From IMG/VR virus record IMGVR_UViG_3300014913_000006: a DNA stretch of 64,000 nt. The stretch is one strand, 5' to 3'. The position numbers and the translations under genes were made by a program. The stretch is from a virus. The notes under the pieces are model-generated. The model did no database searches, was not told the DNA's origin, and saw only the letters and a program-made list of their open reading frames with translations. Shown here in pieces: positions 12,501 to 55,517 of this stretch (positions within the stretch are counted from its first letter, which is position 1; every line of letters begins with the position of its first letter).

Positions 12501-13038
12501 ACATCCCGATACAGTAAAGCATCTCATGAAGGTCAAGGCTCTCAAGGAAGGTAAAGATGCCGACGATATCTGTATGACACCCCACGATCTGTGCAATGAG
12601 ATCACACAGCACATCCCCGATGAAGCGACAATCGCAGACGAGTTGAGACAGGCGAGGGCTGAGCAAGGGGACGACTATGGTATTCTTCAGTGGGCAGTCC
12701 ACAATGTTGAGCAGGTCCAATCTGCGTATGAATGGTTCAAACCGCTGTTCGATCAAGCCATGCGGATCGAGGGGACTAAGAAGTCTCAGTCGAAGCACGC
12801 TGCTGGTGTGGTGATAGCAGACAGACCTATCGCAGAATTGACTCCTCTTGCCTATGACGCAAAAAACAAGGACCGCGTGGTGGGGCTGGAGATGTGCAAC
12901 GCTGAAGACATGGGCGCTGTTAAGTTTGACTTCTTAGGAGTCGTAGCCCTTGACAAGCTCTGGAAAGCGCAGGACTTGATCAACGGATGCGGTGAGGAAG
13001 AGGTCTTGGAAGAGGGGTTAGTGAATGTCCCAGACTGA
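9568..13038 (+). CDS. dnaE: DNA polymerase III alpha, N-terminal half (PHP + palm/thumb) with intein
   Basis: LHVHSFYSLLDG, TDHG, KPIIG|CEMY, DAHY, GRGSGAGSLV, FERF, PDIDTD, HAAGVVI, KFDFLG; stops shortly after KFDFLG. Confidence 0.92.
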   Translation: MSKTYVPLHVHSFYSLLDGLCSPKDIVARCAELGIPACAMTDHGNIAGMKVFYDAAKKKKVKPIIGCCLPGQEIITDRGVKKIQDISTKDMVLTHKGRYRRVVSTMSRYVSTTIYGFDTWGGRKIWTTDEHPLLVRTSEDGFVAKNSWVRADSIQHGRHNSNKRLRWKSYLTMPVHESSIPLVDAVQLLTDNGYDDRYEVVDDRIFKICSKTNSQDTCMGKPFDFPCFQIDDDLAFFIGTFVAEGSFQESKNGPHSGILTFHIDERDLSLRCRQALRSLKIETIETLRPDKTTRELHFHHSIFCRILKCLVGSGAKTKKLHPILMQQSPHITKCFLRGLLAGDGAKRTDGSQILKLANETLIWQTRTLLSKFGYTSRITKSKADNKQAWTIQWRWSSEGYTDSDNRYVYLPIKNIETKHYDGPVFNFEVEEDHSYVSDVILHNCEMYICEQEADVKNTSNNKRNHLIVLAKNDQGIKDLMGLVSESNRPDYFYRKPRIHLAGIAPFAKRGNLIFLTACIAGELPMSLFSDFRAAIMGGRNGHADGAREYLRPNWKDVGKAIIHKHIATFGKDNYYLELQNTGMGIQALVVECLRELSEETGVPTVATIDAHYCRKQEAEDQRLLLYAQLHTTKEEQERKLQQTGDVMDFMISDKYYIPSYDEMRKHFTEAELQTTLDIAAQIEYSSLGHNPYLPIFTNDESKSLKLDSNEYLRHLCIEGAKAKLTHLKPAQKKVYWARLQRELIVIQEAGLADYFLIVWDACRFVDEKNGPRGKGRGSGAGSLVNYLTGITGIDPIEYGLYFERFYNMSRNIPPHFDVGQVDFMSWMSDNFELLHTRDIDEERKAVAAHLARRMKQRRVEFTDMMREEVEWIDKKNPRMWMYLYDMIQDKPAENPANSHLAYGLGATLAGRDELDVKRKVKTHDGHVSLPDIDTDIGVVFRSEVIAYLKERWGEEYVAQMITFGRLQGKAALKEVFRAHPDTVKHLMKVKALKEGKDADDICMTPHDLCNEITQHIPDEATIADELRQARAEQGDDYGILQWAVHNVEQVQSAYEWFKPLFDQAMRIEGTKKSQSKHAAGVVIADRPIAELTPLAYDAKNKDRVVGLEMCNAEDMGAVKFDFLGVVALDKLWKAQDLINGCGEEEVLEEGLVNVPD
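9766..10896 (+). mobile_element. Intein (LAGLIDADG type, 377 aa) in the DnaE PHP domain
   Basis: Starts CCLPGQEIITDRG, TDEHP, FVAEG and GLLAGDG, ends EDHSYVSDVILHN followed by Cys; removal restores KPIIGCEMY. Confidence 0.92.
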
Positions 13039-13399
13039 TTATGCGGCACATATCAAGACTGTCTTCTGTGACCTAGATGGTTGTGTCTTCAAGCATCATG
13101 GAGACATCGCAGAGATACTGGCCAACCCGTGTGAACTGTTACCTGGGGCAAAGGATTCGTTCAAGAAATGGGGGCACAAAGGGTACACGGTTATCCTGAC
13201 CACTGGCAGACCAGAGAGTATGCGAAGCATTACTGAACAACAAGTCCGTGACGCAGGTTTGTATTACCACCACCTGATCATGGACTTGCCACGGGGGCAG
13301 CGAGTCGTGATCAACGACGTAAAGCCCGGGAGAAAAGCCGATACCGCTGCGTGCGTGAACGTTGAAAGAAACAAGGGGATGGAAAATGTTGACATCTAA
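13025..13399 (+). CDS. Minimal HAD-superfamily phosphatase (capsule-biosynthesis phosphatase-like)
   Basis: FCDLDGC motif I, TTGR motif II, VIND.KP. Confidence 0.8.
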   Translation: MSQTDYAAHIKTVFCDLDGCVFKHHGDIAEILANPCELLPGAKDSFKKWGHKGYTVILTTGRPESMRSITEQQVRDAGLYYHHLIMDLPRGQRVVINDVKPGRKADTAACVNVERNKGMENVDI

Positions 13400-14405
13400 T
13401 CTCGCTTGTGGGCCGATGAGCAGAGAAATCATCGAAGCTGTTTTCCGCCATTCGCACAAGTTTGGGGCGCAGTTGATGCTGATATGCTCTCGCAATCAAG
13501 TAGACGCTAACAGTGGATACGTGTTCACGACATCGGAGTACGTAGAGTATCTGGCAAGGCTCAAAAGAGCTTATCCCCAAGCGGACGTAGTAATCTGCCG
13601 CGATCATTGTGGCCCAGGCTTCGGCACCACACCAGAAAGCGACCTTGGCGAAACCAGGAAAACAATCCGCTGCGACCTGGAACATGGCTTCGACCTTATC
13701 CACATCGACCTTTGCCACGCGAAGATGTCCCACGACGAGAAGCTTCGTAACACAGCAGAACTGATGCGGTTCGCTCTAGAGATCAAACCAGATGTGATGT
13801 TCGAAATAGGCACCGACGAGAACGTAGGGGTCACCGAGACAGATGTTGCAAGGATCGTTACCGACATCCAGGCATGTCAGAAAGTGGCCGACCCTGTCTT
13901 TTACGTCGTGCAAACTGGAAGCCTCGTGCGAGAGGCGTACAACGCTGGTTCTTTCGACACCAACAGCGTAAGGGCGATGCACGCAGCATTAGCCGGGTGT
14001 GGGGTCAAACTCAAAGAACACAACGCTGATTACCTGGATACTCGACAGATCACCGCCCGCAAGGGTATTGTGGATGCTGTGAACATAGCCCCGCAACTCG
14101 GTGTAATACAGACAAGCTATCTGTTATCGCAAGCTTTGGTGTACGGAATCAGCACGCAGCCATTCATTGACGAGGTGATACAGGGGGATAGGTGGCGCAA
14201 GTGGGTTGACCCCTCTGGTAATCCACAGCGGATGTTGTTTGTTCTCGTTGCCGGTCACTACCACTTCAACGGATCAGCCTACCAACAACTGGTAGATGAA
14301 CTTGCCCTAAAGATCAACGTCAAAGAGGGTATTCTTGGTGAGATCACAAAGGTCATCGAACATTACCTGTTTTCGTTGGAGGGATGCTATGCAGATCATC
14401 AATAA
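13386..14405 (+). CDS. GatZ/KbaZ-like (tagatose-phosphate aldolase/epimerase family) TIM-barrel protein
   Basis: LICSRNQVD..SGY, RDHCGPG, GFDLIHID, EIGTDE, KEHNADY, NIAPQLG motifs. Confidence 0.75.
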   Translation: MLTSNLACGPMSREIIEAVFRHSHKFGAQLMLICSRNQVDANSGYVFTTSEYVEYLARLKRAYPQADVVICRDHCGPGFGTTPESDLGETRKTIRCDLEHGFDLIHIDLCHAKMSHDEKLRNTAELMRFALEIKPDVMFEIGTDENVGVTETDVARIVTDIQACQKVADPVFYVVQTGSLVREAYNAGSFDTNSVRAMHAALAGCGVKLKEHNADYLDTRQITARKGIVDAVNIAPQLGVIQTSYLLSQALVYGISTQPFIDEVIQGDRWRKWVDPSGNPQRMLFVLVAGHYHFNGSAYQQLVDELALKINVKEGILGEITKVIEHYLFSLEGCYADHQ

Positions 14406-14715
14406 GCCATGGGGCAAAGAAGAGATCCTGGCTGTGCAGGACAAGTATGTGGTCAAGAGATTGCACATGACCAAAGGAAAGAGATGTAGTCTACAGTATC
14501 ATGAGCACAAAACAGAAACGATATATGTGTTGAGCGGCGTGTTGCTATTACACCTGGACGGTCAAGTTATCACAATGAGGCCGGGCGACTTTCGCACCAT
14601 CGTCCCAGGTGAAGTACATCGCATGGAGGGCGGGGAGGACGCTATATACCTGGAGTCTTCAACAACCGAACTAGACGACGTTGTACGTGTGGAAGATGAT
14701 TATGGGCGAGAGTAG
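14389..14715 (+). CDS. Cupin, mannose-6-phosphate isomerase type II C-terminal-like
   Basis: KPWG, SLQYHEHKTET.YVLSG, PGEVHR, DDVVRVEDDYGR. Confidence 0.85.
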   Translation: MQIINKPWGKEEILAVQDKYVVKRLHMTKGKRCSLQYHEHKTETIYVLSGVLLLHLDGQVITMRPGDFRTIVPGEVHRMEGGEDAIYLESSTTELDDVVRVEDDYGRE

Positions 14716-16279
14716 GAAATACAAAGTATTGATTCCAACGGCTGGTGTTGGTTCTCGACTGGGCGACCATTGTGACCATGTCAATAAGACATTGGTTCCA
14801 GTGGCAAACCGTCCAATCATTTCGCACATCATCGAGAAGTTCCCGCCAGACGTAGAATTGATCATTGACCTGGGGCACAAAGGGGAACTGGTCAAAGAGT
14901 TTCTGACCCTGGCATACCCAGATCGCAATTTCACATTCATCTGGGCTAACAGGAAGGGGTTGACAGCGGACCTATGTGATTACCGGGACATCCTACAGTG
15001 CCCGTTTATCTTTTTCACGAACGACGCCATCGTGACAGAGAACATACCGGAACCAGATCGTGACTGGATAGGGTATGCAAACATTCGTGCTGGACATGAT
15101 TATCGATCTGTTGTAGCAGATTCATGGGACTGTACGGTCGTCAAAGCTTTAGGCGAGAAGGGTGCCCACACAGAAGCCCAGGCATACATCGGGATTTGTG
15201 GCATTAACGACTACAAGGCGTTTTGGGCATCTATGGACAAAGCCATGACAGATGGCACGACGAGCCAGGGAGAATCGTTTGCCCTAGCTGAAATGGTTTC
15301 AAGCAGGCCGGTCAAAGGTTATGCGTTTACGTGGTATGATACGGGAACAGTTGAAGCACTCGCGCACGCCAACAAGGTTTTCGGGAAGGAAGATGATCCC
15401 AACATTCTGCCGAAAGCCCAGGAGCATATATGGTTTTGTAACGATCGTGTGATCAAGTTTTCAACAGACAGAGATTTTATCACACAACGAGTCGAAAGGG
15501 CAAAGTCGCTTGCTGGGTATGTTCCGGCTATTGAGGGCAGCACGCCGAACATGTATTGCTATAAGATGATCGAAGGAAAAGTGTTGTCAAATACGATCAC
15601 AATGTCTCGATTCAAAGAATTCTTAGCATGGCTAGAAGGGCTGTGGGGAGATCGTCAACTACTGACAGCCGAAGTGAGAGAGGTCTATCGTAGGTTCTAT
15701 CAAGACAAAACCCTCAAGCGAGTACAAGCGTACTTCGATCGTTTTGGCTATCAAGATTCCGAACAATGTATCAACGGCGTAGATGTGCCATCTGTGGCAG
15801 AACTGTTAGATCGTGTTGATTGGGCGTGGATATCCGAGGGGATTCCAGTTCGCTTCCATGGAGACCTACATCCCGAGAACACTCTCGACACAGGTGGTGG
15901 TTTCAGTCTATTGGACTGGCGACAGAATTTCGGTGGGATGAGTGATTATGGAGATGTTTACTACGATCTAGCAAAGCTGTGGCACGGTATGATTGTGTCG
16001 CACGGAATTATCCACAAGGGACTTTACGAGATTGACATTGACGGGACTGTAGTCAACTTCGATTTACTAAGGCGGCAGATTCTCATCGATTGCGAAACAT
16101 GGTTGCAACAATACCTGATCCGACATCATTATGATTGCCACAAAGTAAAGGTACTGACATCGCTCATCTATCTCAACATCGCAACCCTGCACCATCAGCC
16201 ATATGCCGAAATGCTGTTCCATCTTGGAAAATCAATGTTGTCAAACTTACTAGAGTCTCATGGTGAAACCGAAGTTTAA
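14702..16279 (+). CDS. Sugar-phosphate nucleotidyltransferase fused to APH/choline-kinase-like phosphotransferase
   Basis: N-terminal AGVGSRLG...NKTLVPV and WYDTG; C-terminal FHGDLHPEN, LLDWRQ, YDLAKL. Confidence 0.85.
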   Translation: MGESRKYKVLIPTAGVGSRLGDHCDHVNKTLVPVANRPIISHIIEKFPPDVELIIDLGHKGELVKEFLTLAYPDRNFTFIWANRKGLTADLCDYRDILQCPFIFFTNDAIVTENIPEPDRDWIGYANIRAGHDYRSVVADSWDCTVVKALGEKGAHTEAQAYIGICGINDYKAFWASMDKAMTDGTTSQGESFALAEMVSSRPVKGYAFTWYDTGTVEALAHANKVFGKEDDPNILPKAQEHIWFCNDRVIKFSTDRDFITQRVERAKSLAGYVPAIEGSTPNMYCYKMIEGKVLSNTITMSRFKEFLAWLEGLWGDRQLLTAEVREVYRRFYQDKTLKRVQAYFDRFGYQDSEQCINGVDVPSVAELLDRVDWAWISEGIPVRFHGDLHPENTLDTGGGFSLLDWRQNFGGMSDYGDVYYDLAKLWHGMIVSHGIIHKGLYEIDIDGTVVNFDLLRRQILIDCETWLQQYLIRHHYDCHKVKVLTSLIYLNIATLHHQPYAEMLFHLGKSMLSNLLESHGETEV

Positions 16280-16288
16280 GAAAGGCAG

Positions 16289-16861
16289 ATGGGCATGATT
16301 TACTCTAGTTTGCAACATGGACTTACCTTACTTGATAGCAGGTACAAGCACGTTCTAGAGTTTGGTGTATGTCGTGGAGATACCATCCGTGTTATACGAC
16401 AAACACTGGATGCTTCATTTTCAGTTTTCGGATTCGACTCGTTCGTTGGACTGCCGGAAGCCTGGGTGGACAAGCATGGAGCAGTGGTTGTCCCGCCAGA
16501 ATACTTCTCAACCAATGGTGTTATACCCGATGTCCCAAATGTGAAATTCTATGCTGGGTGGTTTTCGGATACGTTGCCTAAACATCTTCCAATCGCCGAA
16601 CCAATAGCGTTGCTTCACGTAGATTCAGACCTCTATAGCTCTGCCAAAGAGGTGTTGTGGGCACTGAATGACCACATCGTTGCCGGAACAATCATCGTAT
16701 TCGATGAATGGTTCTATAAACATGACGCTCAATACGACGACCACGAACAACGAGCGTTCAATGAGTGGGTACTGGCATTTAACAGAAAATTTGAGATTAT
16801 ATGTTTCAAAGACGAAACTCCGTCTGGGGAGGAAAGAAGGATAGTGAGGATTTTGGATTAA
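16289..16861 (+). CDS. TylF/MycF-like SAM-dependent (sugar) O-methyltransferase
   Basis: LEFGV..G, GFDSFVGLPE, GWFSDTL, LHVDSDLYSS, IVFDE. Confidence 0.82.
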   Translation: MGMIYSSLQHGLTLLDSRYKHVLEFGVCRGDTIRVIRQTLDASFSVFGFDSFVGLPEAWVDKHGAVVVPPEYFSTNGVIPDVPNVKFYAGWFSDTLPKHLPIAEPIALLHVDSDLYSSAKEVLWALNDHIVAGTIIVFDEWFYKHDAQYDDHEQRAFNEWVLAFNRKFEIICFKDETPSGEERRIVRILD

Positions 16862-17476
16862 ATGGTGAACTTAACCGGTCAAAAATTTGGGAAATTAACC
16901 GCCATATCGATCTCCCATAAAGATAAACGCCTTGGGGCATTTTGGATTTGCCTATGTGATTGTGGGCGCAATACGGTAGTTTATAGAGGACACCTCAAAT
17001 CGGGGCATACAAAAAGCTGTGGATGTTTGTGGTCAAAGCATGGACATACGACAGGTTATGAAAGGACAAAAGCATACTATACTTGGGTCTCCATGAGACA
17101 AAGATGTGATAATCCAAGCAACGGAGTTTACGGGAACTACGGTGGGCGAGGAATAAAAGTTTGCAGTAGGTGGATGATATTTGAAAATTTTTTAGAGGAT
17201 ATGGGAGAATCTCCGACAGGTTTACAGCTAGACAGAATAGACAACGATGGTGATTACTGCAAAGAAAATTGTAGATGGGTTACCCCCGAACAGAACTCAA
17301 GAAACAAACGAGACAATCGTTTTCTTACCTTAAATGGAGAGACAAAATGTGTGGCAGAATGGGCTGAAGAATTATGTATTAACTCCCAGACATTGTATGT
17401 AAGATTGTTTCGGGGATGGTCAGCAGAGAAAGCCCTAACGACACCAGCAAAAACAAAGAAAGGAAAATCATGCTAA
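16862..17476 (+). CDS. Free-standing HNH-type homing endonuclease
   Basis: LTGQKFGKL, CLCDCG, KSCGC, YGGRGIKVC, LDRIDNDGDY..ENCRW, EWAE; AT-richer than flanks. Confidence 0.85.
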   Translation: MVNLTGQKFGKLTAISISHKDKRLGAFWICLCDCGRNTVVYRGHLKSGHTKSCGCLWSKHGHTTGYERTKAYYTWVSMRQRCDNPSNGVYGNYGGRGIKVCSRWMIFENFLEDMGESPTGLQLDRIDNDGDYCKENCRWVTPEQNSRNKRDNRFLTLNGETKCVAEWAEELCINSQTLYVRLFRGWSAEKALTTPAKTKKGKSC

Positions 17477-18315
17477 GAGTGGCTTTGTGTTTGAGCGGTA
17501 TGGCGTTGCACCCCGGCAAAAAAGTCGTGGGTGGTCAGATGTGGAACGGCAAGACAGGAAAGAGGACACCGGTCGAATGGCGTAAAGGTCTAGAGCACTA
17601 CCAGAGACATATGTTCGCCCATAACGACGTAGATGTGTTCATGCATACGCCGAGCCTAGCCGCAGAACAAGAGCTAAGAGATGCCTACAAGCCAAAGGCT
17701 GCGATATTCGAACCTGACCCAAAGTTCAACATTGCTGGAGCCAAGGTTGATAAGGACTACCCAGATGGCATTACCTCAAAAACCCAGATAACAATCGCCA
17801 GATGGTACAGCATACAGAAGTGTATGCAACTCAAGAAACAGTACGAAAAGGCACAAGGATTCAAATACGACATGGTGATGATTGGCCGCTTTGATGTTGC
17901 ATGGATGGTAGATGTGCATTTTGACCAGTTCGACCCAAACCATTTCTATGCGTCCAACTGGTGTGTTATGAAGCTTCCTAACGGCCAGGGTATCAGGCAC
18001 GAAGATTGGTTCCTGCACGGATGGGACAAAAAGGACAACGCCAATCTACAACATGTTCATCTGGGATACCCCCATACACCTCACTATCAAGCACTCGCTG
18101 ACTACTGGTTTTTCGGAGGAACCGAATTGATGGACAGGTTCGGCGACCTATACGACAACATAGGCAATTTTCTCAGGGCCGGTGTGCCGTCTAATCATGA
18201 ATTTGCACTCAAACAATTGAGAACTACAGGACTTCTGCCAAAACTGAAGTTCGCTTTTCACATTCATGACGATTGTTTCTTAGCCCGTTTCGTGTACTGC
18301 GATTGGAGGAAATAA
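17470..18315 (+). CDS. Putative glycosyltransferase
   Basis: RVALCLSG, DVFMHT, YS...C..LK..YE...KYD.V..GRFD, D.WF.G pattern typical of viral GT-like proteins. Confidence 0.6.
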   Translation: MLRVALCLSGMALHPGKKVVGGQMWNGKTGKRTPVEWRKGLEHYQRHMFAHNDVDVFMHTPSLAAEQELRDAYKPKAAIFEPDPKFNIAGAKVDKDYPDGITSKTQITIARWYSIQKCMQLKKQYEKAQGFKYDMVMIGRFDVAWMVDVHFDQFDPNHFYASNWCVMKLPNGQGIRHEDWFLHGWDKKDNANLQHVHLGYPHTPHYQALADYWFFGGTELMDRFGDLYDNIGNFLRAGVPSNHEFALKQLRTTGLLPKLKFAFHIHDDCFLARFVYCDWRK

Positions 18316-18316
18316 G

Positions 18317-18370
18317 ATGAGCCGCGTGTTCTTAGACGTAGGTGCCCACCATGGGCAGACAAAACAGTAG
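18317..18370 (+). pseudogene. 5' stub of an FkbM-like methyltransferase
   Basis: GGAGG SD then ATG encoding MSRVFLDVGAHHGQTKQ*; xLDVGAxxG is a SAM-binding motif I. Confidence 0.6.
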
Positions 18371-18533
18371 AAATAAACGTAATAATCACCTAGTTGCATT
18401 TAACGAAAAGATTCAATGCATTGCTGCTTGGGCTGAGGAAACCGGAATCCCCTATCACACCATTTATCGAAGAATATATAAGTTGAACTGGTCTCCGGAA
18501 AGAGCCTTAACACTACCTACGAAAAAGGAATGA
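18359..18533 (+). pseudogene. 3' remnant of an HNH homing endonuclease
   Basis: QNSRNKRNN...AWAEETGI...WSPERALT matches the C-terminus of 16862-17476 (QNSRNKRDN...EWAEE...WSAEKALT). Confidence 0.75.
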
Positions 18534-18536
18534 AAA

Positions 18537-19283
18537 ATGAAAGCTAAAATTTGGCAATTTTGGGACAATCCACCTGGACACACAGAGCCTCCTGCATACA
18601 TACAGTTGTGCCAAGAAACTGTACGTAAGCACTGTAGTGCAGATTTTGATATATGTTTAGTAACCACAGAAAATGTTAAACAATTTTTACCAGATATCTC
18701 TGATTCTTTTTTCGAAATATCACAAATTAACAACAAGTCTAATTACCTAAGATACACGTTACTGAAAGAATCTGGGGGCATATGGCTGGATGCAGATTTA
18801 ATTCTGTTCAAAAGTCTGAAGCCGCTGCTTGAACTACTTACAGAAGAAATAGATTTGGTAGCCACGGCCTCTCCCACTCTTAGATATGGAGAACCGGAGT
18901 GTGGGATTTTAGTATCCAAAAAGAATGGTGCAGTAATAACCAAAGCTGTTTCTATAATAGAATATGCGTTAAGTCTCAGGGAACCTGGACACGTTTTCAA
19001 ATGGGGTTCTCTGGGACCAGAGACCATACGACAAGCAGTAAAGGGAAAGAGGTACTGCCACATGGAGCACCCACTTATCATGCCTATCCCGTCCTGGGAG
19101 GCATATCGCTTCGCCGGGAAGGATTCAATAGACAAGTATTGTAACGACGCATCATTTGGAATAATGTTGTTCCATCAGATGTTTCGACAATGCAACAGTC
19201 CTTTCTTAACTATGGGCCGACAAGAGTTATTGGACAGCCCAACACTGTTAGGACAAATGTTCAGAAAGGCAGTAAGTAGTTAA
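18537..19283 (+). CDS. DXD glycosyltransferase (GT32 / capsular polysaccharide synthesis-like)
   Basis: KIWQFW, C...V..H, SNYLRY.LL..GGIWLDAD, WGSLGP. Confidence 0.82.
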   Translation: MKAKIWQFWDNPPGHTEPPAYIQLCQETVRKHCSADFDICLVTTENVKQFLPDISDSFFEISQINNKSNYLRYTLLKESGGIWLDADLILFKSLKPLLELLTEEIDLVATASPTLRYGEPECGILVSKKNGAVITKAVSIIEYALSLREPGHVFKWGSLGPETIRQAVKGKRYCHMEHPLIMPIPSWEAYRFAGKDSIDKYCNDASFGIMLFHQMFRQCNSPFLTMGRQELLDSPTLLGQMFRKAVSS

Positions 19284-20116
19284 TGGCTACTCCTAGCGAA
19301 AACAAGATGTGTTTCATGACAGTGGCCAATCGACCGTATCAAAAATACGTCCCATGGTTCTTGTATTTCCTGAACAGGGCTTACCCAGAGGCGCACAAGC
19401 TGGTCTTACTTGACGGAGCTATGGCTGACAACGTTCGTCAGATGCTCACTTTGCTGTCTGGCAATTTCGAGGTACGCGAGCGAGCGTTCCCGGAATATAC
19501 CCACACGGACGCAAATACCATCAAGTGTCTGAGATGGCTCGTCTACGAACCGGCGTTCGAGCAATACGACTGTATGTCAATCGGTGATGTTGATATGGCG
19601 ACCTATGTAGAGACCCCACCGTATATGGATCAACATCTCGCACATTGTGACCAGTTGGGAATCCCGTACAGTAATTTCGTCAGACCGCCCAATGCCGGGC
19701 CAAGGCGCATGAGTGGAATACACGTCATCAAACCAAGAGAGTGGTTCGCTACAATGAGGCCGATAATAGACAAGTACCGTCCAATGCTCAAGGCTGGCAA
19801 GATCAGTCTCCCAGAACAGGGATTCAACGAACAGCTTTTGCTACGAATGATCATCGAGTCTGATCTTGGCGAGCCGCCAGCCAACTTGTTCGACACCTAC
19901 TGGCCCTCTCTGGCAACATCAAACCATCATGGGACACATATCCGTCTGGCAGAATGTGGCGGGATCAGAGGGCTTCAGGGTGCCAAGGGATATCGGACCC
20001 ATAAGCCAGAGGTTCTGGCTGCTGTCAAGACACCGCTGTTCAGCCAATTATCGGCCATGTCGCCTCAAATCGGCGGTATGCTGCAAGCGATAGCCAGGGC
20101 GTACAAAAATTTCTGA
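19283..20116 (+). CDS. Putative GT-A fold glycosyltransferase
   Basis: FMTVAN..Y, LRWL, IGDVD (DxD), NEQLL; glyco-cluster context. Confidence 0.5.
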   Translation: MATPSENKMCFMTVANRPYQKYVPWFLYFLNRAYPEAHKLVLLDGAMADNVRQMLTLLSGNFEVRERAFPEYTHTDANTIKCLRWLVYEPAFEQYDCMSIGDVDMATYVETPPYMDQHLAHCDQLGIPYSNFVRPPNAGPRRMSGIHVIKPREWFATMRPIIDKYRPMLKAGKISLPEQGFNEQLLLRMIIESDLGEPPANLFDTYWPSLATSNHHGTHIRLAECGGIRGLQGAKGYRTHKPEVLAAVKTPLFSQLSAMSPQIGGMLQAIARAYKNF

Positions 20117-20151: not shown

Positions 20152-20156
20152 GGAGT

Positions 20157-23100
20157 ATGATTGAGTTCACCAATTGCAAATGCAATGTAGAGAAGGGTAA
20201 ATTTAGTATCAACGATATCCCTCTCGATTGTCCTGCCGCATGGCGACTCGTTTCGGGTGGTCACACGGTTGGGGTGTTCCAACTTGAGAAGAGCCTTGGT
20301 CAAGATTGGGCCAAAAAAGTACGACCTAGCAATATTGAAGAATTGGCTGCTTTGGTAAGTTTACTACGACCCGGACCCCTTGAGGCAGGATTAAGTCAAG
20401 ATTATGTAGATATTAAATTTGGAAAGAAAAAAATCTCCTATCTACATCCATCTTTGAAGCCCATATTAGAATCAACATATGGCCAAATGATATACCAAGA
20501 ACAAGCTTTGCGTATCGCCACCGATATAGCTGGATTTAGTCCAGAAAATGCAGATGAATTAAGAAAATGTGTCACTAAAGACACTTTGTTCTTGTCTAAA
20601 CAAAGGGGTTGGGTTTCCATCGATACGTTAATAAAAACTGGATATGACAAAGATTTATTTTTAACTATGAATTCTCAAGGAATCAAACAATGGAAAAAAA
20701 TCTCTTCGATATGGTCAAACGGAATTAAGACCACCAGAACCGTCGAATCCAGAACTGGTTTAAGCATTAACACAACTAAGCATCATCAATTTTTGACATC
20801 CAGTGGCTGGAAAGCTAGAAGACGACTAAATAATAATAGTTATCTGATTACGACAAAATGTGTTAATTATGACGGCATAGATGTTATTTCACCAGAGATG
20901 GCAATCATTGTTGCTGGAATCGTAGCAGAAGGATATTTCACTAAAAACACGAGCAGAACTTTTACCATGTTTGATAAAGGAATGATGGATCGTTTCTGTC
21001 AGTGCTTTGAAAAGGAATTTAAGGAATTGCCCAGTATGTCCAGTGCCAAGGGTATTGCTAACAGGGTTGCCAGAATAAGAGACAAACATGCACATAAATT
21101 ACATAAATACGTAGGATATGCTTTGTCTGCAAATAAAAAATTACCTGAAATAATGATGGGCATGACCGTAGAAAGTACCAGAAAATTTCTTTCATATTTA
21201 TTGGTATGTGACGGTGGTGTCAGTAAAAATTCAAAACAATTTACATATACATCAAAATCTAAAAAATTAGCCCAACAGATACAACTTCTACTTTTGAGAT
21301 TCGGTATTAGATCAACAATCAATCCAAAAAATGTAAAAAATTATGGAATTTATTATGTGTTATCTGTTTGCGATTTTGGTTGTCAACAAAAATTGCAACA
21401 AGAACTTACATGTGAATGGCCAGATAATAAAAAAGAAGCACTACAAAGTATCTTAAACAACAAGAGACAAGAACAATTTACAATAGATATTATACCAAAT
21501 GAACTGGTAATCAAAATGCTTGATCAATATCCATTTGTTGCAAACAACGAAAGTGGAACAGCTTGGACTTCTAATATTTCTAGAAATAGGTTTTTGAAAA
21601 TGTCAAATCAAACCAATGATCAATATTGGATAAATATTGCACAAAATGAACAATTTTATGATCAAGTCAAATCTATTGATCAAAAGTCTGTTGTTGAGGT
21701 TTTCGATTTTTCTATGGAAGATACTAACATACCGTACATAGTAGCAAATGGGATAGTAATACACAATAGTATCGGGAAAAAGAAGCCCGAACTCATGGCA
21801 AAGCTCAAGGACAAGTTCGTCAAGGGTGCCCAGTCGCACGGGAAAATCGCTCGCAGCGTAGCAGAGGAAATCTTTGGATGGATCGAGAAGTGCCAGCGTT
21901 ATAGCTTTAATAAATGTGTGTCTGGGAAAACAATAATCCGTCGTGGAGCAAAAGGCAAACATCTCAAAACAGATGGCTATACTGTAGAGCATATGTATAG
22001 AATTAAAAATAGTATCCAATATGCCAAAAAACATGGACATGAATCTCTAAGACGCAAATGGAATCGTCTTGGCCATTACGGTACTGGATTATCATTATGT
22101 GATGATGGTAGAATCCGTCAGAATATTATTAGAGATATACAATCAGCAGGAATGCGCAATGTATACAAAATTACCCTAGAGAATAATGGCACGATTTCTG
22201 TTACTGCTAACCACAAGTTTCCTACTGTAGATGGTAAAAAAACAGTGGGTCAACTATTAGTTGGAGATGAATTATATGTTTGTGGACCATATGAAGAGTC
22301 TGATTTTAATACGATAAATAGATTCAGTCAACAAAATGAATTTACTCATAAATCATATGGTCAAAGATGTGGTTTTCCAGTAGGTAGAGACAATCCTGCT
22401 TATACGAATGGATCATATACAGATTTTCAATTATACAAAAATAGTAAACCAAATACCTGCGAACAATGTGGCAAAGAAAATTGTAGAATTGAAATAGCAC
22501 ATTTGAATGGAGATAGGACGAATAGCAAACCATCAAATTTGAAAAAGCTTTGCGTGTCTTGCCATAAGAAACACGATTATGTTTTAGGAAGAACTAAGCG
22601 GGGCGAAAAGGGATATCCCGCCAAGAGGGTAAAAATTATATCTATAGAGCCAGAAGGAATAGAACATGTTTGGGATGTTACTATGGATGGACCAAATCAT
22701 AATTTTACTATTGATAATGGAATCATCACTTGTAACTCACACGCTGTCAGCTACGGTATGATCGCCTATCAGACCGCATGGCTGAAGTGTCACTTCCCAC
22801 ATGAATTTTTCACCAGCTACCTGACGTATTCCCAATACAAGGGTGATCCCAAGGAAGAGATTTATAAACTGGTACAGGATGCCCGGCTGTTCGGTGTGGA
22901 TATTCTGCCACCTGATATTCGTCGCGGCAACGTCCATTTCCAGATGACCGAAGAACCACAAAAGGGCGTAGCATTCGGCCTGGCGCACGTCAGGGGTGTC
23001 GGAGCCTCAGCTATCGAGAAGATCGTCTCAGCGGCCTCTACAACGCCAGGGGCGGGCTCTCTGGAGACTTGGGCCAGCTTCCTCGCAGCGGTTCCAGACT

Positions 23101-24026: not shown

Positions 24027-24029
24027 TCA

Positions 24030-30664: not shown

Positions 30665-30948
30665 TGAAAACATCTTGGAGAGATGTCGTTGGATACGAAG
30701 GAATCTATCAAGTTTCTAACATTGGTCACGTAAAAAGAGTAACCAAAGGCCGTCGCACCAGAGTTGGAAAGATATTGAAACAAAGTTTGCGGGGAAGAAA
30801 AAACCACCAATATTTATGTGTCTGCCTTTATAGGAATGGACAAAAGAAGGTGATACAAGTTTACACGCTAGTTGCGCATCGGTTCGGCGTTTTGCAAACA
30901 ACCATATCTCGTGTCGTTCTTAGGCTCACTTGGAAACATATAAATTAA
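30664..30948 (+). pseudogene. NUMOD4 homing endonuclease with HNH core deleted
   Basis: NUMOD4 WRDVVGYEGIYQVSNIG..K; LVA joins directly to terminal HTH HRFGV..TISR...TWKHI with no HNH motif. Confidence 0.72.
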
Positions 30949-30959
30949 GGAGAACTTTT

Positions 30960-31979: not shown

Positions 31980-31990
31980 GGAGATAAGCG

Positions 31991-36302: not shown

Positions 36303-36303
36303 T

Positions 36304-41763: not shown

Positions 41764-41774
41764 TTTTATACACC
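41764..41774 (-). promoter_or_regulatory. Putative late promoter variant GGTGTATAAAA
   Basis: In the short gap before ATG 41744. Confidence 0.45.
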
Positions 41775-43546: not shown

Positions 43547-43551
43547 TAGCC

Positions 43552-47690: not shown

Positions 47691-47701
47691 CTTGTCCTCC
47701 C

Positions 47702-48421
47702 TTAATACCCGTTGTCCACGAAACCAGGCGGTATTTTGTCTCTTTTGACAAATCTATTGCATCTTGGACACAATAATGACAAATTTTCTAAACCAAACAA
47801 TGCTAACAATTCCGATTCGTTAGATGCCGAAGATGTCGGTACAATATGATCGATATCATAACCGACATCGTCATAGTCACTTTTGCACATAGGGCATCTA
47901 TTGTTTTGTTGTCGCCTTATGCCCTCCAGATGATCACACAGTTCTTCGCCGGAATACGGAAGATGTTTAGTGAAACCTTTTTGTCCGTTGAGACGATGAT
48001 GCAATGCACTCCTTAGTCTGTTTTGATATATATAAATTGGTTTCTGCAACCTATTTCTTTGTGTGTTTCTCCTTTTTTCTTTTGAAGACGAACGCGACGA
48101 CCATTTTCGAAACTGTTCGGATTCGCACTTATTGCATCTCAATCTACCCAACCCACATCTTGTTCTGTGAGAGTGTGTCGTGTTGCCGTGTCTCGGGCAA
48201 ATTGCAATTATCTTGTTATTCCCAATTTTTGAAACGATCAATCTTTTTTGTCCACCCTGCACTCCATAAGCTTTTAAGCCTAGTTGCTTAGCCCTGCTAA
48301 TAATAGCAGTGTAGGTACGATCGAGTTTGTCGCAGCAGCCTTTGTAACCACCATTCGGATAAGCATTTTTCAATATTTCAATTTCAATGTTTGTCCATTT
48401 AGGGTATTTTTTGCTATTCAT
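47702..48421 (-). CDS. Free-standing HNH homing endonuclease
   Basis: WT..E..IL repeat N-terminus, CPMC...DIDHIVP...NLSLLCPRCN..K; AT-rich. Confidence 0.82.
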   Translation of the reverse strand: MNSKKYPKWTNIEIEILKNAYPNGGYKGCCDKLDRTYTAIISRAKQLGLKAYGVQGGQKRLIVSKIGNNKIIAICPRHGNTTHSHRTRCGLGRLRCNKCESEQFRKWSSRSSSKEKRRNTQRNRLQKPIYIYQNRLRSALHHRLNGQKGFTKHLPYSGEELCDHLEGIRRQQNNRCPMCKSDYDDVGYDIDHIVPTSSASNESELLALFGLENLSLLCPRCNRFVKRDKIPPGFVDNGY

Positions 48422-48422
48422 T

Positions 48423-51400
48423 TTAATATCCATGCGAATACAGGTTCCCGCTGGTATTATACACAAGGGTACCAGCATCTAGGAACAGGTGGAGCCCACT
48501 AGGGCCGTTATTGAACATTCCAGAGACACCCATCAAGTAAAGTGGTAATGTATCCGTCTCTTGTTCAAAGAGTCCTTCTACAAACAGATTGCCAGACGCA
48601 GCAAGTACAATTGGGACTGCACCAGACATGTACAGCGTTGCGGTTCCGAACCAACCCGGATCACATCTCAAGAACAGGCTCCATGGATCGTCATGGGAAT
48701 CGTGTGGTTGGAATCCAATTCGAGTTGGGTCATCTGGGTTGACGCTGCAAATCAGACCAACAGAGCCAGTGATCTCAATGCCGTCCGGTGGTTGACCCGG
48801 AGCGTGACCACGGATGTACAGGCTGCAAGTTTTTGGTACAGTGAAATCAGCCTTCAAGAACATCGTCCAAGCTTCGTCGCTTGTCAGATTGCCCTCTTGC
48901 GCCTTCATGAACAGGGTCCATGCTTCTGTCCCGCCTGCCGTGTATGGGTAATCCGCGTCGGCAGCTTCGAGATACAGTTTCACATTATTAAACGCCCGAT
49001 TGATGCCAGATGAGCCGGATGGTAGTGTAAAGCCATTGATGAACAGATCGAGAGATTCGGTTTTGTCGTTGTCGTCAGTTTTCAGGTATAGAGTCCAGCC
49101 ACCCCATTGTCTTCCTGTGCCGATGAACAACGGACATGTACCGCTAGCTTGGTCATATCCATACGTATACAAGGTTGGGCTTGGATCGCCATATGGGTAT
49201 GTAAAGTCGTCTGGGTCACCTGGATACGAGAAGCTACCACTTGAACAGATGAACTCTGGTCCCTTAATGAATAGGTCGCAATTCCCGCTACTGCCATTAT
49301 GCCCGAGGATGTATAACGGTGGGCTAATACCATGTCCTGCACCACCACCAACACTAGTGAAAACACCAGCCATCGTGTATAGGTCTACGCCGCTTGAATG
49401 TGGCTGCGGACCAACGATAAACAAGGTGCCAGATTCGCCAATTTCTTCGTGACCATCACCTATTCTGAGTAGCATACCAGATGGATAATTACCGCTGGTA
49501 TCAACATGTCTGTGTCCCTGTATGTAGAAATCTACGTCATCAGCTACTGGACCAAAGATAACCAACGGACAGGTGTCCTCGTATTGGAGTGGTCCTCGCG
49601 TATACAATGGTGGACCATATTCAATTCCCGCCATCGATTCGATGGCAGCAGCACCATCAGCCGCAAAGATGAAGTCTGTCAACTCGGGTGTTCTAGGTGA
49701 TGTGCCGATGTAGGCACTAGTGAATGATTCCTGTGTACGGAGATACAGGTTGGCCGTCCCACTATTTTGTAATGGCCCCTGCATGTAAAGGTTGCACCCA
49801 CGGCTTGCTAAGCCACCGGTCAATCCACTTGTTGTGCCAGCAGTATCACCTGTGGTCTCGATAACAAAGATACCGCTACCAGTTGAACCACCAAAGAAGA
49901 CTCCACTACCAGTAAACGAAAAATCGTCAACACGAGGTACGCCGTGATAGTGAACCGGGAATAGATCGTAACTGTAGATACCAGTTGGGGTTGGTGAACG
50001 TCTCTGGTTAATTTCTGGATGATTGTCATGGTTGACCCATCTGATCGAGGCACCATAGGAATTAAGGTTGACTTCGTCGTTGTATGGCTGCAGCACGCCA
50101 CTCTGTGGATCGTGGAATATTTGTTCCCCACCATTTGGCCTAGGACCTTGGCTATGGTATGTTGTACTGGTGAACGGCTGGATGTTACCAATATAAAATC
50201 CAGACGGTGGTGTTTCTTCGAGCAAGTAGGCAGATGCATCTGCCCCGTAGGCACCTAAGCCAACTTCTATAGTGACACGAAGCCCTGAGCAAATCTCGCC
50301 CGGATTGTAGCCGACCCCTGGAATTGTTGGATCATATGCGAATGCCCCCACTGTTCGCTGGATATATGTTGACGGTGGAACTATGGTTGGTCGGTACTCA
50401 TCTAGTGGTCTATTATATGTATCAACGATACTGTATAGGTCTCTCAACTCGTCTGTTGTAAAGCGACCGGCGTCGGTCCATAACACATTCTCGGCTAAGA
50501 TTATGCTACCCTGTTTGACACCACCCATTTCAGCAGGTATGATGCCACCAGTGATATTAACGCCCTGCTGTCTTACACCAACACAGTTTTCGGCTCTCCT
50601 GTTTGTTGGGTCGCTGTAGCTATATAGAGAACTAGCGGGTGGGCCAGTCAGACCAGAGCCAACATAAGTCCATGGCTGGCCGTCAAGACTTAGGTAGACC
50701 TTCATGTGGTTTGGATGGCTACCATCTATCCCACTGGCTATGAAGTCAGCATGTAAGGCAACAAAGACAATAGGATCATGGTCAATATATGTTGTCGGCC
50801 ACTCTTCCTCCCAAGTTCTGTACAATCCTGTTACTTCTGTATTCCATTCCCAAGTGGAACCGCTCGGGGTGCCATAATGGGTAGTACCTCCCCACCACAG
50901 ACCGCCGCCGCTTGGCTGCTCATATGGTACGTCACGAACATTCGTGATAACAGTGATGCCACTTTCACTCTCAATACGAATACCAAGCGTATGTGAAGCA
51001 AGAGCAATGTCTAAATCTTCGGGAAGACTCTTGCGGAACCAGCCGACCTCAGCTACGTTTCCGGAAGTGTGGGCGCCAGACATCCAAAAGACTGTGGTAA
51101 AACTGCCCGAACCAGCATATCCATAGTTTTCTGTCTCACCACAGATATTCTGCTTATATCGTTCTGATTCGTAATATCCCATCTTTGTTGATTGCCAACC
51201 ACCACCGGGAGTACGATAGTCTGTATCCATCGCTTCGCGGTAATTATATCCACCCAAATCGTCATAGTGTGGATATGTTCCATCGCCGGGTGTTGGAACA
51301 AAAGGTTCGGCCAGAATCGAGTCAGCTACATGGGCGACTGTTTTACCGGATGTACCGATAAAGGGAGTGTGCTGGAACAAGGGGGCTGGAACGTACCACG

Positions 51401-54400: not shown

Positions 54401-55517
54401 CTGTGTAATGAACATGCTGATTACGACCTTCGATAAAGCATGTTGCTGTTTGCACAGCAATGCCCGTGCAGCCAACAAAGTTGTCCCAGTATCCAAGGAG
54501 GCTGAAATAGGGTGTTTCGCTAACGTCTTCATAGAAAAACTCGATATCTGCTGACGCATTGATCGAAGCACACATGCGACAGGTATCAAAGCCCGTTGCT
54601 CCTGCATCTATTTCGTGCAACTCCAGGGCTCGACCAAGAGTTGAACCACTTTCTCTGACACCAACCCAATTCTCATCACTTGCGCAACCATTGCCCAAGG
54701 CGAATTCACCAACTGAGTTGGCTGGTATGCCAGATTCATTCAGAGATTTGCCGTACCATGTCCCCAAGGCTGGGCCATCTTCGCCACCATTGCCATCTGG
54801 AGCACCAATATCAATAAGCCGTTCGTGATACTCTCCTGGCGGTGAAGACCAATAACCAACCAGATAGAACTCGACACTGGGCACATCTTCAGCATAGACC
54901 TGAATAGCGGCAGTATCTCCGCTGGCAACAACCGACATAGTGATGCCATCTACGCCACCGGCTTCGGCTTCGTGAATATCAATGTGACGATCCAGCAATG
55001 ATCCGCTTGTTCTAATACCGATGTCCCGACTTAGGCCATTATCAGTATTGACACCAACAACTTCGGCTACCTGTCCACCACTGACGCCATATCCAGTCAG
55101 TGATTTGTTATCCCATGTCTCGTTTGTGTCAGCGACAAAAGTCTCGAACAACTCTGTGTATTCAACACCGAGCCAATATCCCAAAATATGGAACTGGATA
55201 TTTGGATCATCAGCGGAGCCATTTGATTCGCTAAAAAATTCGACCTTACCATGAGCGTCAACCTGCGTGCATAGTCCAATGCCATCTACGCCACCGGCTT
55301 CTGCTTCATGTATATCGATTATCCGATCAACCGCTGATCCAGATTTACGAACTCCAGCCCTGTGCTCGGCGACAGAGTCACAATTTATCAAAGCAATTTC
55401 GACGACAGAATTGGGAGGAACACCCAAAGAGACTAGGCTTTTGCTAACCCAAGTACCTTCTTCGTCGCCTATCAACGACAATGTATGGTATGTTTCCTCA
55501 TAATGTCGATAAATCAT
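48423..55517 (-). CDS. Giant repeat-rich tail fibre / receptor-binding-like virion protein
   Basis: 2364 aa; about seven ~105-aa repeats (GVR..GS.LDR...GYW), many short SGxLxL(F/Y)xxG repeats, LamG-like and cohesin-like segments; follows the tape measure gene. Confidence 0.65.
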   Translation of the reverse strand: MIYRHYEETYHTLSLIGDEEGTWVSKSLVSLGVPPNSVVEIALINCDSVAEHRAGVRKSGSAVDRIIDIHEAEAGGVDGIGLCTQVDAHGKVEFFSESNGSADDPNIQFHILGYWLGVEYTELFETFVADTNETWDNKSLTGYGVSGGQVAEVVGVNTDNGLSRDIGIRTSGSLLDRHIDIHEAEAGGVDGITMSVVASGDTAAIQVYAEDVPSVEFYLVGYWSSPPGEYHERLIDIGAPDGNGGEDGPALGTWYGKSLNESGIPANSVGEFALGNGCASDENWVGVRESGSTLGRALELHEIDAGATGFDTCRMCASINASADIEFFYEDVSETPYFSLLGYWDNFVGCTGIAVQTATCFIEGRNQHVHYTELSTTYIETTPADTWNTFNVNDYGVPLTNDIDPVVVELVLLNSRGTVSYLVGARSVGSSLDRRFSLHEAVGYSNDHLSLFVPVDDSGNIEVYADNDDYNKFQVAGFWCGATYVEANDIISATGDAGWESYDLGTQYANKIVDVVVANTDTTAQIPLSGGVRQVGSNLDRHHVFDKVSDTGGKDYVTMQVRASGTDGTIQLYAEIADDIEFTVVGYWDFSPGTYHEAFSDVGPSTVSDQWEPLDVGVAEGSVCEIVLENRSNSHLDMGIREVYSSYDDKYLEQRDINVAADTAASMMRVHVNMTSGTYAEFYQDNSSSTYAYRLIGYWDNLSRIPLRDNGTVGLFTHGHKTPNVLEEADYPSGLQMYIDGIPVAKCPLFTMGPRRFEGNGNMFLQVPESCLSSGSMFLSGPHLVGTSGISGMYPGISHEDGGPSSPLFISGPEQYADNGNLFIKVREPCSNSMNLYTKVFDQLTVCHYIEDFRTWTPLSKDTWETQDLASWVPDVSDITAEIMICNSGEVNADTLVGVRTAGSLLDRRVSIAPAEPTYGGYNAATMHVQLSGTKIECYAPSGVNFYLMGYWVGAEYQELAATILPADPTSTWNSLDLDSAGVPSGAIVEVLEGQSYGNQLQGVRSVGNPADRKFKWIGGDHASERYSFWTSMLQTSGANATIQKYHEFTNTWQPTVVVGYWKKPPGDYTDLYQQNEANPTVDSTWESVSLSGVPSGAVASIGIITNENEDSRVVGVRSKAVKLERKIGVSAAPLSTRYVVTDMQVNANSDIEVYSEDATGDRDNFTLFGYWDNFIDTPLDLAGSSNLYVGGVAPYTTSGDLVTCGHQSFNSNNQYPSGVSLHIYGIQTANADLFTHGLDIHQVSGNLFTHGVFGYATNVDDCPNYPSGVQLYSQGSGIIPHNDRHDLFIRGYESIKTSGDLFAHGIAPHVSSGDLFLKAIEPQTASLNLFVYNPVDPGPGLIREPNAVFYLKYYHDGQGAAGDITEFVQDQAWYVPAPLFQHTPFIGTSGKTVAHVADSILAEPFVPTPGDGTYPHYDDLGGYNYREAMDTDYRTPGGGWQSTKMGYYESERYKQNICGETENYGYAGSGSFTTVFWMSGAHTSGNVAEVGWFRKSLPEDLDIALASHTLGIRIESESGITVITNVRDVPYEQPSGGGLWWGGTTHYGTPSGSTWEWNTEVTGLYRTWEEEWPTTYIDHDPIVFVALHADFIASGIDGSHPNHMKVYLSLDGQPWTYVGSGLTGPPASSLYSYSDPTNRRAENCVGVRQQGVNITGGIIPAEMGGVKQGSIILAENVLWTDAGRFTTDELRDLYSIVDTYNRPLDEYRPTIVPPSTYIQRTVGAFAYDPTIPGVGYNPGEICSGLRVTIEVGLGAYGADASAYLLEETPPSGFYIGNIQPFTSTTYHSQGPRPNGGEQIFHDPQSGVLQPYNDEVNLNSYGASIRWVNHDNHPEINQRRSPTPTGIYSYDLFPVHYHGVPRVDDFSFTGSGVFFGGSTGSGIFVIETTGDTAGTTSGLTGGLASRGCNLYMQGPLQNSGTANLYLRTQESFTSAYIGTSPRTPELTDFIFAADGAAAIESMAGIEYGPPLYTRGPLQYEDTCPLVIFGPVADDVDFYIQGHRHVDTSGNYPSGMLLRIGDGHEEIGESGTLFIVGPQPHSSGVDLYTMAGVFTSVGGGAGHGISPPLYILGHNGSSGNCDLFIKGPEFICSSGSFSYPGDPDDFTYPYGDPSPTLYTYGYDQASGTCPLFIGTGRQWGGWTLYLKTDDNDKTESLDLFINGFTLPSGSSGINRAFNNVKLYLEAADADYPYTAGGTEAWTLFMKAQEGNLTSDEAWTMFLKADFTVPKTCSLYIRGHAPGQPPDGIEITGSVGLICSVNPDDPTRIGFQPHDSHDDPWSLFLRCDPGWFGTATLYMSGAVPIVLAASGNLFVEGLFEQETDTLPLYLMGVSGMFNNGPSGLHLFLDAGTLVYNTSGNLYSHGY
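54944..55310 (-). repeat. Nucleotide-level direct repeat encoding HEAEAGGVDGI in adjacent protein repeats
   Basis: ATGCCATCTACGCCACCGGCTTC occurs near 54943 and 55279 on the + strand. Confidence 0.75.

Follow-up and report, generated by a model that had tools for sequence, protein, structure and literature searches.

A Ser-Gly excess in outer virion proteins and a glycosyltransferase pathway side by side in the genome of a large uncultured phage

We analyzed a 64,000-nucleotide stretch (the window) of the IMG/VR virus record IMGVR_UViG_3300014913_000006, which spans positions 31358-95357 of a viral contig 160,023 bp long, with a CheckV completeness of 96%. The window carries two clusters of sugar genes (13025-20116 and 25529-34572) that encode glycosyltransferases, and a set of tail proteins in which the dipeptide Ser-Gly is over-represented. 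A sequence-only reading had joined the two, proposing that Ser-Gly serves as an O-glycosylation sequon for a methylated, phage-built glycan coat. We find that both features are real and lie side by side, and that the evidence does not tie them to each other.

The phage has relatives in IMG/VR, a clade of uncultured genomes of about 140-180 kb, and none among 50,697 GenBank phage records. The plus-strand half of the window encodes replication and recombination functions (RecA, DnaB, primase, a PD-(D/E)XK nuclease, a split DNA polymerase III alpha, and SSB), and inteins interrupt several of these genes. The minus-strand half is a tail module, transcribed in the order tape measure protein, then proteins of 2364, 258 (an HNH endonuclease), 581, 797, 590, 211, 1179, and 216 amino acids. 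Sugar cluster 1 (7 kb) sits between the two parts of DNA polymerase III alpha, a layout shared with the relatives G001 and G002; no split-intein halves are evident at the polymerase break. Cluster 2 comes after the SSB gene. The synteny of the clusters is kept in G001 and G002.

Ser-Gly excess in the outer virion proteins

Four proteins of the tail module are rich in Ser-Gly. They belong to no named family, and neither the large tail proteins nor any Ser-Gly-rich protein of the genome matched Pfam, PHROGs, or PDB sequences. Their position downstream of the tape measure gene (PF10145) and their fiber-type domains suggest that they are virion proteins, so the placement made by the sequence-only reading holds. 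Its Ser-Gly counts, including the one to three pairs in neighboring proteins, were exact on recount. The 2364-residue protein contains 60 Ser-Gly and 24 Gly-Ser pairs, against 22.9 expected from composition; the corresponding figures are 21, 11, and 9.0 for the 1179-residue protein, 9, 5, and 3.8 for the 216-residue protein, and 5, 3, and 2.3 for the 211-residue protein. The neighbors are poor in Ser-Gly: 1 pair in the 797-residue protein (8 Gly-Ser, 4.8 expected), 2 in the 590-residue protein (2 Gly-Ser, 4.2 expected), and 3 in the 581-residue protein (10 Gly-Ser, 4.5 expected). The tape measure protein has 5 Ser-Gly and 1 Gly-Ser. Ser-Gly thus exceeds composition 2.3-2.6-fold in the window's Ser-Gly-rich proteins. 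By residue shuffles and Poisson tests, the excess is significant for the 2364-residue (P = 9e-11) and 1179-residue (P = 5e-4) proteins; the two paralogs of about 212 residues are individually not significant (P = 0.015 for the 216-residue and 0.08 for the 211-residue protein).

The excess extends beyond the window. Four more Ser-Gly-rich proteins, of 399, 611, 916, and 306 residues with 9, 16, 27, and 16 Ser-Gly pairs, are encoded downstream of the putative capsid gene (genome positions 109491-119096). This block contains a lectin-like beta-propeller, a LamG-like domain, 14-residue fiber repeats, and a C-terminal knob; it is hypervariable among relatives and has no Pfam or PHROG family. When all eight Ser-Gly-rich proteins are pooled, Ser-Gly is the most over-represented dipeptide (163 observed vs 61.4 expected, or 2.66-fold; z = 13), and the remaining genome has 197 pairs against 207 expected. 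Gly-Ser is enriched in none of the eight (pooled 67 vs 61.4, about 1.1-fold). An equal enrichment of Gly-Ser, which the sequence-only reading had named as evidence against a sequon, is clearly not what we find. The putative major capsid protein is not Ser-Gly-rich. The excess recurs in the relatives' orthologs and also in their non-orthologous fiber proteins.

We considered several simple origins for this pattern. An artefact of DNA words or codons is ruled out: 23 codon pairs encode Ser-Gly, with both TCN and AGY serine codons in use, and the bias therefore lies at the amino-acid level. Low-complexity Ser/Gly linkers are ruled out because Gly-Ser is not enriched. A general property of phage fibers is ruled out by the baseplate, fiber, and whisker proteins of T4, where Ser-Gly, Gly-Ser, and expectation are about equal.

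Ser-Gly sites are conserved. Across the 17-member family of the 1179-residue protein, Ser-Gly is kept at 75% of sites vs 36% for Gly-Ser, and serines are 78% conserved inside Ser-Gly vs 51% elsewhere. Ser-Gly sites are therefore under selection. Where a site has changed, the glycine survives about five times as often as the serine, whose place is taken by Asp, Thr, Gly, or Asn. Such a pattern is more in line with a turn than with a glycan acceptor. The residue before the pair is Pro, Ala, Ser, or Thr; the residue after the glycine is Thr, Ser, Asp, Val, or Asn, with Leu/Val and Phe/Val/Leu at the next two positions (+2/+3). The context of animal proteoglycan xylosylation (acidic flanks, Ser-Gly-x-Gly) is not found at these sites, and acidic residues are not prominent.

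Repeat modules in phages with and without glycosyltransferases

Much of the Ser-Gly resides in repeated modules, which we resolved by local iterative profile searches. The first is a blade of about 48 residues in which a Val-Ser-Gly-Thr turn is the most conserved element (1,094 copies; Ser 81%, Gly 90%). The second is a 14-residue fiber repeat around Ala-Ser-Gly-Asp-Leu-Phe, followed by a conserved C-terminal knob, and the third is a Ser-Gly-rich LamG/ConA-like domain. In the 2364-residue protein, fiber repeats (residues 711-854, 1139-1344, and 1944-2363) and a LamG-like domain (1439-1710) hold 35 of the 60 Ser-Gly pairs. The 48-residue blade, the 14-residue repeat, and the knob are widespread, undescribed fiber modules. 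For the 916-residue protein alone, which belongs to no Pfam family, there are 1,863 representative homolog clusters at E <= 0.001; in the best 150 of them, Ser-Gly stands at 2.0 times and Gly-Ser at 1.02 times expectation. An AlphaFold model of the 399-residue protein is a beta-propeller (pLDDT, a per-residue confidence score, 78; pTM, a global one, 0.82) that places all nine Ser-Gly glycines in inter-strand turns. The model of the 1179-residue protein is too poor for use (pLDDT 47.6).

Blades allow a comparison between phages with and without glycosyltransferases. GT4 and GT2 genes are present in 9/9 clade genomes that are at least 86% complete. We found no glycosyltransferase-less member within the clade; the hit-free records are fragmentary and are missing the tail gene as well. 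All near-complete members carry glycosyltransferases, and there is therefore no contrast within the clade. Propeller homologs are encoded on small, unrelated viral contigs, one of them a complete 61.9-kb genome, and these control contigs have no match to PF00534, PF00535, PF13692, PF13641, or PF04488. With blades defined by profile envelopes, the glycosyltransferase-bearing clade has 1.01 Ser-Gly pairs per blade (74 blades), and phages that lack glycosyltransferases have 1.03 (204 blades). The signature serine is conserved in 67% of blades (n=70) with phage glycosyltransferases vs 89% (n=182) without them, and the glycine in 93% and 90%, respectively. An apparent difference from a pattern-based split into signature and non-signature Ser-Gly (1.92 vs 0.86) vanished on counting inside profile-defined blades, and we rejected it. 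Profiles of the LamG-like domain and the fiber repeat found no match in the glycosyltransferase-less phages.

The same enrichment in glycosyltransferase-less relatives, which had been named in advance as evidence against a sequon, is thus what we observe in propeller blades, the only family that can be compared. Given equal Ser-Gly per blade and a serine that is better kept without glycosyltransferases, Ser-Gly in blades is a fold signature independent of the sugar genes. The proposal that Ser-Gly acts as an O-glycosylation sequon is not supported by this comparison, the only test at hand.

We favor, with a probability of roughly 0.55, the explanation that the Ser-Gly excess is a structural signature of turns, which the repeat architecture has multiplied. 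The outer virion proteins appear to be built from repeated beta modules: the blade, the fiber repeat, LamG/ConA-like jelly rolls, and clade-specific beta-rich proteins. In these modules glycine would close a tight turn (in the blade, a hairpin) with serine preceding it, and repeat duplication together with purifying selection would multiply the pair. The blades demonstrate this origin, and we infer it for the other modules.

Several observations weigh against this explanation. Before glycine in the Ser-Gly-rich set, serine occurs at 2.68 times its share, and Thr (0.79), Asp (0.80), and Asn (0.97) do not rise with it; the remaining genome favors Asp-Gly (1.36) and Asn-Gly (1.21), as is usual. 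The excess depends on serine and on the order of the two residues, and a plain turn habit is not its full explanation. It also covers at least four unrelated folds and is found only in outer virion proteins, and the T4 baseplate, fiber, and whisker proteins lack it. Outside the blades, Ser-Gly stands at 2.39-fold in glycosyltransferase-bearing phages vs 1.44-fold in glycosyltransferase-less ones, in parts that are not homologous between the groups; the clade's remaining excess lies in fiber-repeat, LamG-like, and clade-specific proteins with no homolog in the control phages. The comparison itself is a single phylogenetic contrast in which one of four control genomes is complete and the absence of glycosyltransferases is judged by five Pfam families. 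Phages without glycosyltransferases of their own might, moreover, use host enzymes.

The sugar gene clusters and their possible targets

The inventory of the two clusters in the sequence-only reading is largely right (Table 1). It had counted about seven glycosyltransferases. Five are solid, over Pfam cut-offs (three GT4, one GT2, and one GT32-like), and to these we can add only one weak candidate (32458-33222), for which protein-atlas feature scores below 0.9 are no more than a lead. Among its methyltransferases, the TylF-type enzyme stands and the second (31991-32461) falls below Pfam cut-offs. In the 532-residue fusion protein, NCBIfam nucleotidyltransferase models of the RmlA, AglF, and MurU types match residues 15-124.

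Table 1. Features of the window. Positions refer to the 64,000-nucleotide window.
Feature	Position	Strand	Basis or remark
DNA polymerase III alpha, N-terminal part	9445-13038	+	PHP and NTPase domains; own LAGLIDADG intein
HAD-type phosphatase-like protein, 124 aa, first in cluster 1	13025-13399	+	Weak Pfam/NCBIfam HAD matches below cut-off; kept in G001, G002
Class II aldolase / GatZ-KbaZ-like TIM barrel, 347 aa	13362-14405	+	PF08013, PF01116 E ~1e-5, below cut-off; NCBIfam KbaZ/GatZ weak
Cupin, mannose-6-phosphate-isomerase C-terminal type, 126 aa	14335-14715	+	PF01050 48 bits, PF07883 46 bits, over cut-off
Sugar-1-phosphate nucleotidyltransferase (N) / APH-type kinase (C) fusion, 532 aa	14681-16279	+	PF01636 over cut-off, PF12804 weak
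TylF-type sugar O-methyltransferase, 190 aa	16289-16861	+	PF05711 54 bits, PF13578 35 bits, over cut-off
Homing-endonuclease-type mobile insert, 204 aa, not a sugar gene	16862-17476	+	Dispersed paralogs genome-wide; no copy here in G001, G002
Conserved protein, 299 aa	17416-18315	+	Weak DUF7796 match; no PDB sequence match
GT32-like glycosyltransferase, DXD region, 248 aa	18537-19283	+	PF05704 47 bits, PF04488 33 bits, over cut-off
Conserved protein, 277 aa, last in cluster 1	19283-20116	+	No family match; 80-90% identical in G001, G002
DNA polymerase III alpha, C-terminal part	20157-24026	+	Finger and HhH domains; own LAGLIDADG intein
GT4 glycosyltransferase with two inteins, 1318 aa (exteins ~572 aa)	25529-29485	+	Hint, LAGLIDADG, PF00534
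GT4 glycosyltransferase, 392 aa	29486-30664	+	PF00534 46 bits; 69-84% identical in relatives
Homing-endonuclease-type insert, not a sugar gene	30664-30948		
GT4 glycosyltransferase, 349 aa	30930-31979	+	PF13692, PF00534, PF13524, over cut-off
Possible methyltransferase fragment, 156 aa	31991-32461	+	Methyltransferase families E ~0.01, below Pfam cut-off
Possible GT-A (GT2-like) protein, 254 aa, weak candidate	32458-33222	+	No Pfam match; protein-atlas GT2 clusters 0.86-0.88
GT2 glycosyltransferase, 265 aa	33192-33989	+	PF00535 39 bits, over cut-off
Conserved protein, 199 aa, end of cluster 2	33973-34572	+	No family match
Small Ser-Gly-rich tail protein, 216 aa	36813-37463	-	Paralog of the protein at 41109-41744
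Ser-Gly-rich beta-rich tail protein, 1179 aa	37557-41096	-	Clade-restricted family
Small tail protein, 211 aa	41109-41744	-	Ser-Gly excess not significant alone
Three Ser-Gly-poor tail/baseplate proteins (590, 797, 581 aa)	41774-47690	-	Ser-Gly and Gly-Ser counts
Giant Ser-Gly-rich tail protein, 2364 aa	48423-55517	-	14-residue fiber repeats and LamG-like domain
Tape measure protein, 1685 aa	55528-60585	-	PF10145, 71 bits; marks the tail module

The largest GT4 gene is interrupted by inteins. They occupy residues 107-503 and 736-1083 of the 1318-residue product, and each starts with Cys, ends with His-Asn, and is followed by Cys. Residues 1-106, 504-735, and 1084-1318 align with an intein-free homolog of 572 residues from the relative G005, and the second intein lies directly before the conserved Glu-x7-Glu motif. 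In the relatives, this GT4 protein carries one intein (961-986 residues) or none (572-587 residues). Inteins in a GT4 enzyme, one of them beside Glu-x7-Glu, point to a gene under strong constraint. To our knowledge, inteins have not been described in glycosyltransferases before.

No protein of either cluster has a hydrophobic segment in a Kyte-Doolittle scan, and the pathway is therefore cytoplasmic. The aldolase-, cupin isomerase-, and phosphatase-like proteins, together with the kinase/nucleotidyltransferase fusion and the TylF-type enzyme, would supply an activated and possibly O-methylated sugar. Five or six glycosyltransferases would then assemble an oligosaccharide on an acceptor which, we infer, is reachable from the cytoplasm.

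As that acceptor we tentatively rank the phage's own structural proteins first. There is precedent: mycobacteriophages Che8, Corndog, and Myrna glycosylate their virions with phage glycosyltransferases, with the glycans attached to the C-terminal ends of their capsid and tail-tube subunits, as summarized in PMC12619734 (citing Freeman et al. 2023, Cell Host Microbe). As in those tailed phages, the glycosyltransferases here are phage-encoded and would act in the cytoplasm on proteins before assembly. The systems differ in that the pathway here is larger, with five or six transferases and a nucleotide-sugar module. The mycobacteriophage system is not known to use a sequon, and the putative major capsid protein here is not a Ser-Gly-rich one. 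If virion proteins are the acceptor, exposed turn serines are candidate sites; no result requires this.

A host target is possible, if on balance unlikely. The pathway would modify lipid-linked precursors of the host envelope at the cytoplasmic face of the inner membrane and leave export to the host, for example to change a receptor after infection, and Ser-Gly would be unrelated to it. Lipid-linked intermediates are the typical substrates of GT4 and GT2 enzymes that lack membrane segments. The NCBIfam models that come nearest, all far below cut-off, are those of exopolysaccharide and lipopolysaccharide enzymes such as EpsE and WcaL, and the clusters sit alongside early or middle replication genes. 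Against such a target, polytopic membrane proteins that could serve as initiating polyprenyl-phosphate transferase, flippase, polymerase, or ligase are missing from the genome (the tape measure protein aside, no protein has more than two hydrophobic stretches), although host enzymes could serve. The inteins and the universal conservation of the glycosyltransferases also suggest a core rather than an accessory function.

We consider it doubtful that the sugar genes and Ser-Gly belong to one system, in which the phage GT4, GT2, and GT32 enzymes would O-glycosylate exposed Ser-Gly turn serines in the cytoplasm and give fibers and tail tip a possibly methylated glycan coat. In its favor, the excess is serine-specific, directional, conserved, and confined to outer virion proteins, Gly-Ser is unenriched, and T4 fibers show nothing similar; the glycosyltransferase pathway is soluble, core to the clade, and without a route to DNA acceptors; and phage-encoded virion glycosylation does exist in the mycobacteriophages covered by PMC12619734. 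The nearest mechanistic analog is provided by TibC and AAH, which act on TibA and AIDA-I in cytoplasmic, serine-only O-glycosylation at the turn loops of repetitive beta structures. TibC adds heptose to TibA serines, not threonines, in the turn loops of a beta-solenoid, and one mapped site reads Asn-Ser-Gly-Gly (PMC4358343). The acceptors here differ, being propellers, fiber repeats, and jelly rolls rather than a beta-helix passenger domain, and the phage genome has no match to the GT9/BAHT-type family (PF01075). A second parallel is offered by the O-GlcNAc transferases of Gram-positive serine-repeat adhesins, SdgA/SdgB, which modify Ser-Asp repeats, and GtfA/GtfB: these belong to the same GT4, GT-B fold superfamily, and their acceptor is a serine-containing dipeptide repeat. 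With curated cut-offs of 800, the SdgA and SdgB models give the 349-residue GT4 protein only 24 and 15.6 bits, respectively, and Ser-Gly here is scattered through folded domains instead of forming a low-complexity repeat. The phage glycosyltransferases thus resemble protein O-glycosyltransferases at the family level only. Their clusters also lie among replication genes, not structural genes, and in the only shared family the serine is better kept where phage glycosyltransferases are absent, at equal Ser-Gly per blade. The stronger retention of glycine than of serine at Ser-Gly sites points the same way. A narrower variant, in which blade Ser-Gly is an older fold signature that was later co-opted and the turn serines of fiber-repeat, LamG-like, and clade-specific proteins receive an O-methylated sugar from the phage pathway, seems to us just as questionable.

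It is very unlikely that the excess reflects chemical stability, with Ser-Gly selected in long-lived extracellular proteins as a durable substitute for Asn-Gly and Asp-Gly turns, which are labile to deamidation and isomerization. The shift in the Ser-Gly-rich set relative to the rest of the genome (Asp-Gly 0.80 vs 1.36, Asn-Gly 0.97 vs 1.21, Ser-Gly rising to 2.68) has the expected direction. However, clade propellers are not depleted in Asn-Gly, the most labile of these pairs, relative to those of glycosyltransferase-less phages (0.81 vs 0.85), T4 virion proteins show no such shift, and the Ser-Gly-poor baseplate proteins of the same virion are unaffected.

Sugar hypermodification of phage DNA, an alternative that the sequence-only reading had raised, is highly improbable despite the embedding of cluster 1 within the split polymerase gene and of cluster 2 after SSB, since every entry enzyme of the known routes is missing: ThyX is present, and the genome has no match to thymidylate synthase (PF00303), Tet_JBP (PF12851), C5 methyltransferase (PF00145), or 2OG-Fe(II) oxygenase (PF13640) families. 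One known route begins with a thymidylate-synthase homolog that makes 5-hydroxymethyl or 5-hydroxy pyrimidines (PMC13326640), and another with a cytosine methyltransferase and a TET-type dioxygenase; phage glycosyltransferases related to lipopolysaccharide enzymes can decorate DNA with mono- to trisaccharides (both bioRxiv 10.1101/2023.12.21.572611). The T4 alpha/beta-glucosyltransferases, the TET-dependent systems, and the arabinosyl-5-hydroxycytosine of RB69/DLP3 likewise combine glycosyltransferases and a nucleotide-sugar pathway amid replication genes, but the thymidylate-synthase homolog, C5 methyltransferase, and TET-type dioxygenase of such systems are missing here. Other targets take the remaining share.

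If the pathway does decorate the virion, phage-built glycan coats would extend from mycobacteriophages to a large uncultured environmental clade of about 140-180 kb, with a bearing on receptor binding, particle stability, and recognition by immune or defense systems. If Ser-Gly serines themselves were glycosylated, phages beyond the actinobacteriophages would gain their first case of virion glycosylation with a defined sequon. The negative result is equally important: in the one family that can be compared, Ser-Gly is a fold signature, and similar excesses elsewhere should be tested in the same way before they are read as sequons.

Lectin-like folds, mobile elements, and neighboring genes

The closest solved folds to the 399-residue model are Photorhabdus PLL lectins and sialidases. 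The seven-bladed lectins PLL2 (6rgg) and PLL4 (8q82) reach template-modeling (TM) scores of 0.69-0.72 normalized by target, and the N-terminal parts of the 611- and 916-residue proteins are also predicted to be propeller-folded. Sequence identity to these lectins is 14%, and the phage proteins have no Pfam family. The closest viral models are unnamed phage proteins (TM 0.80). From such models, the propeller and LamG/ConA-like proteins look like glycan binders. One of the Photorhabdus lectins that are the top solved matches was solved with an O-methylated sugar, and the phage encodes a sugar O-methyltransferase; the fibers might bind, not carry, an O-methylated glycan.

One homolog from the blade-repeat family, P0187, combines the repeat with PKD-like domains and C-terminal sorting domains of the type IX secretion kind. 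Secreted proteins of bacteria that use type IX secretion (Bacteroidota-type) therefore contain the repeat too, which may point to the host range of the blade module.

In the tail module, the 797-residue protein is kept clade-wide. The 1179-residue protein has 16 homolog clusters, all at least 53% identical. The 216- and 211-residue paralogs share 29% identity, and the 216-residue protein is 92-93% identical to its counterparts in G001 and G002.

Inteins and homing endonucleases are very abundant in this genome. One intein each interrupts RecA and DnaB (157-2430 and 4334-7039), and an 825-residue protein beside the capsid module (genome positions 130135-132612) has intein-like similarity. The tail module (47702-48478) and both sugar clusters also harbor inserted endonuclease paralogs (HNH and others).

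Two plus-strand genes follow cluster 2 (34562-35949), and neither belongs to a sugar pathway. The first (34562-35476, 304 residues) is not a glycosyltransferase; it groups with function-unassigned phage proteins, and a single-strand-annealing-protein neighbor scored 0.84, within the chance range. The second encodes a 157-residue protein with a weak Whirly-type single-stranded-DNA-binding match.

The baseplate-like 797- and 581-residue proteins (43552-47690, minus strand) show the opposite dipeptide bias, toward Gly-Ser over Ser-Gly. This bias is weakly significant and is absent from the G001 ortholog of the 581-residue protein.

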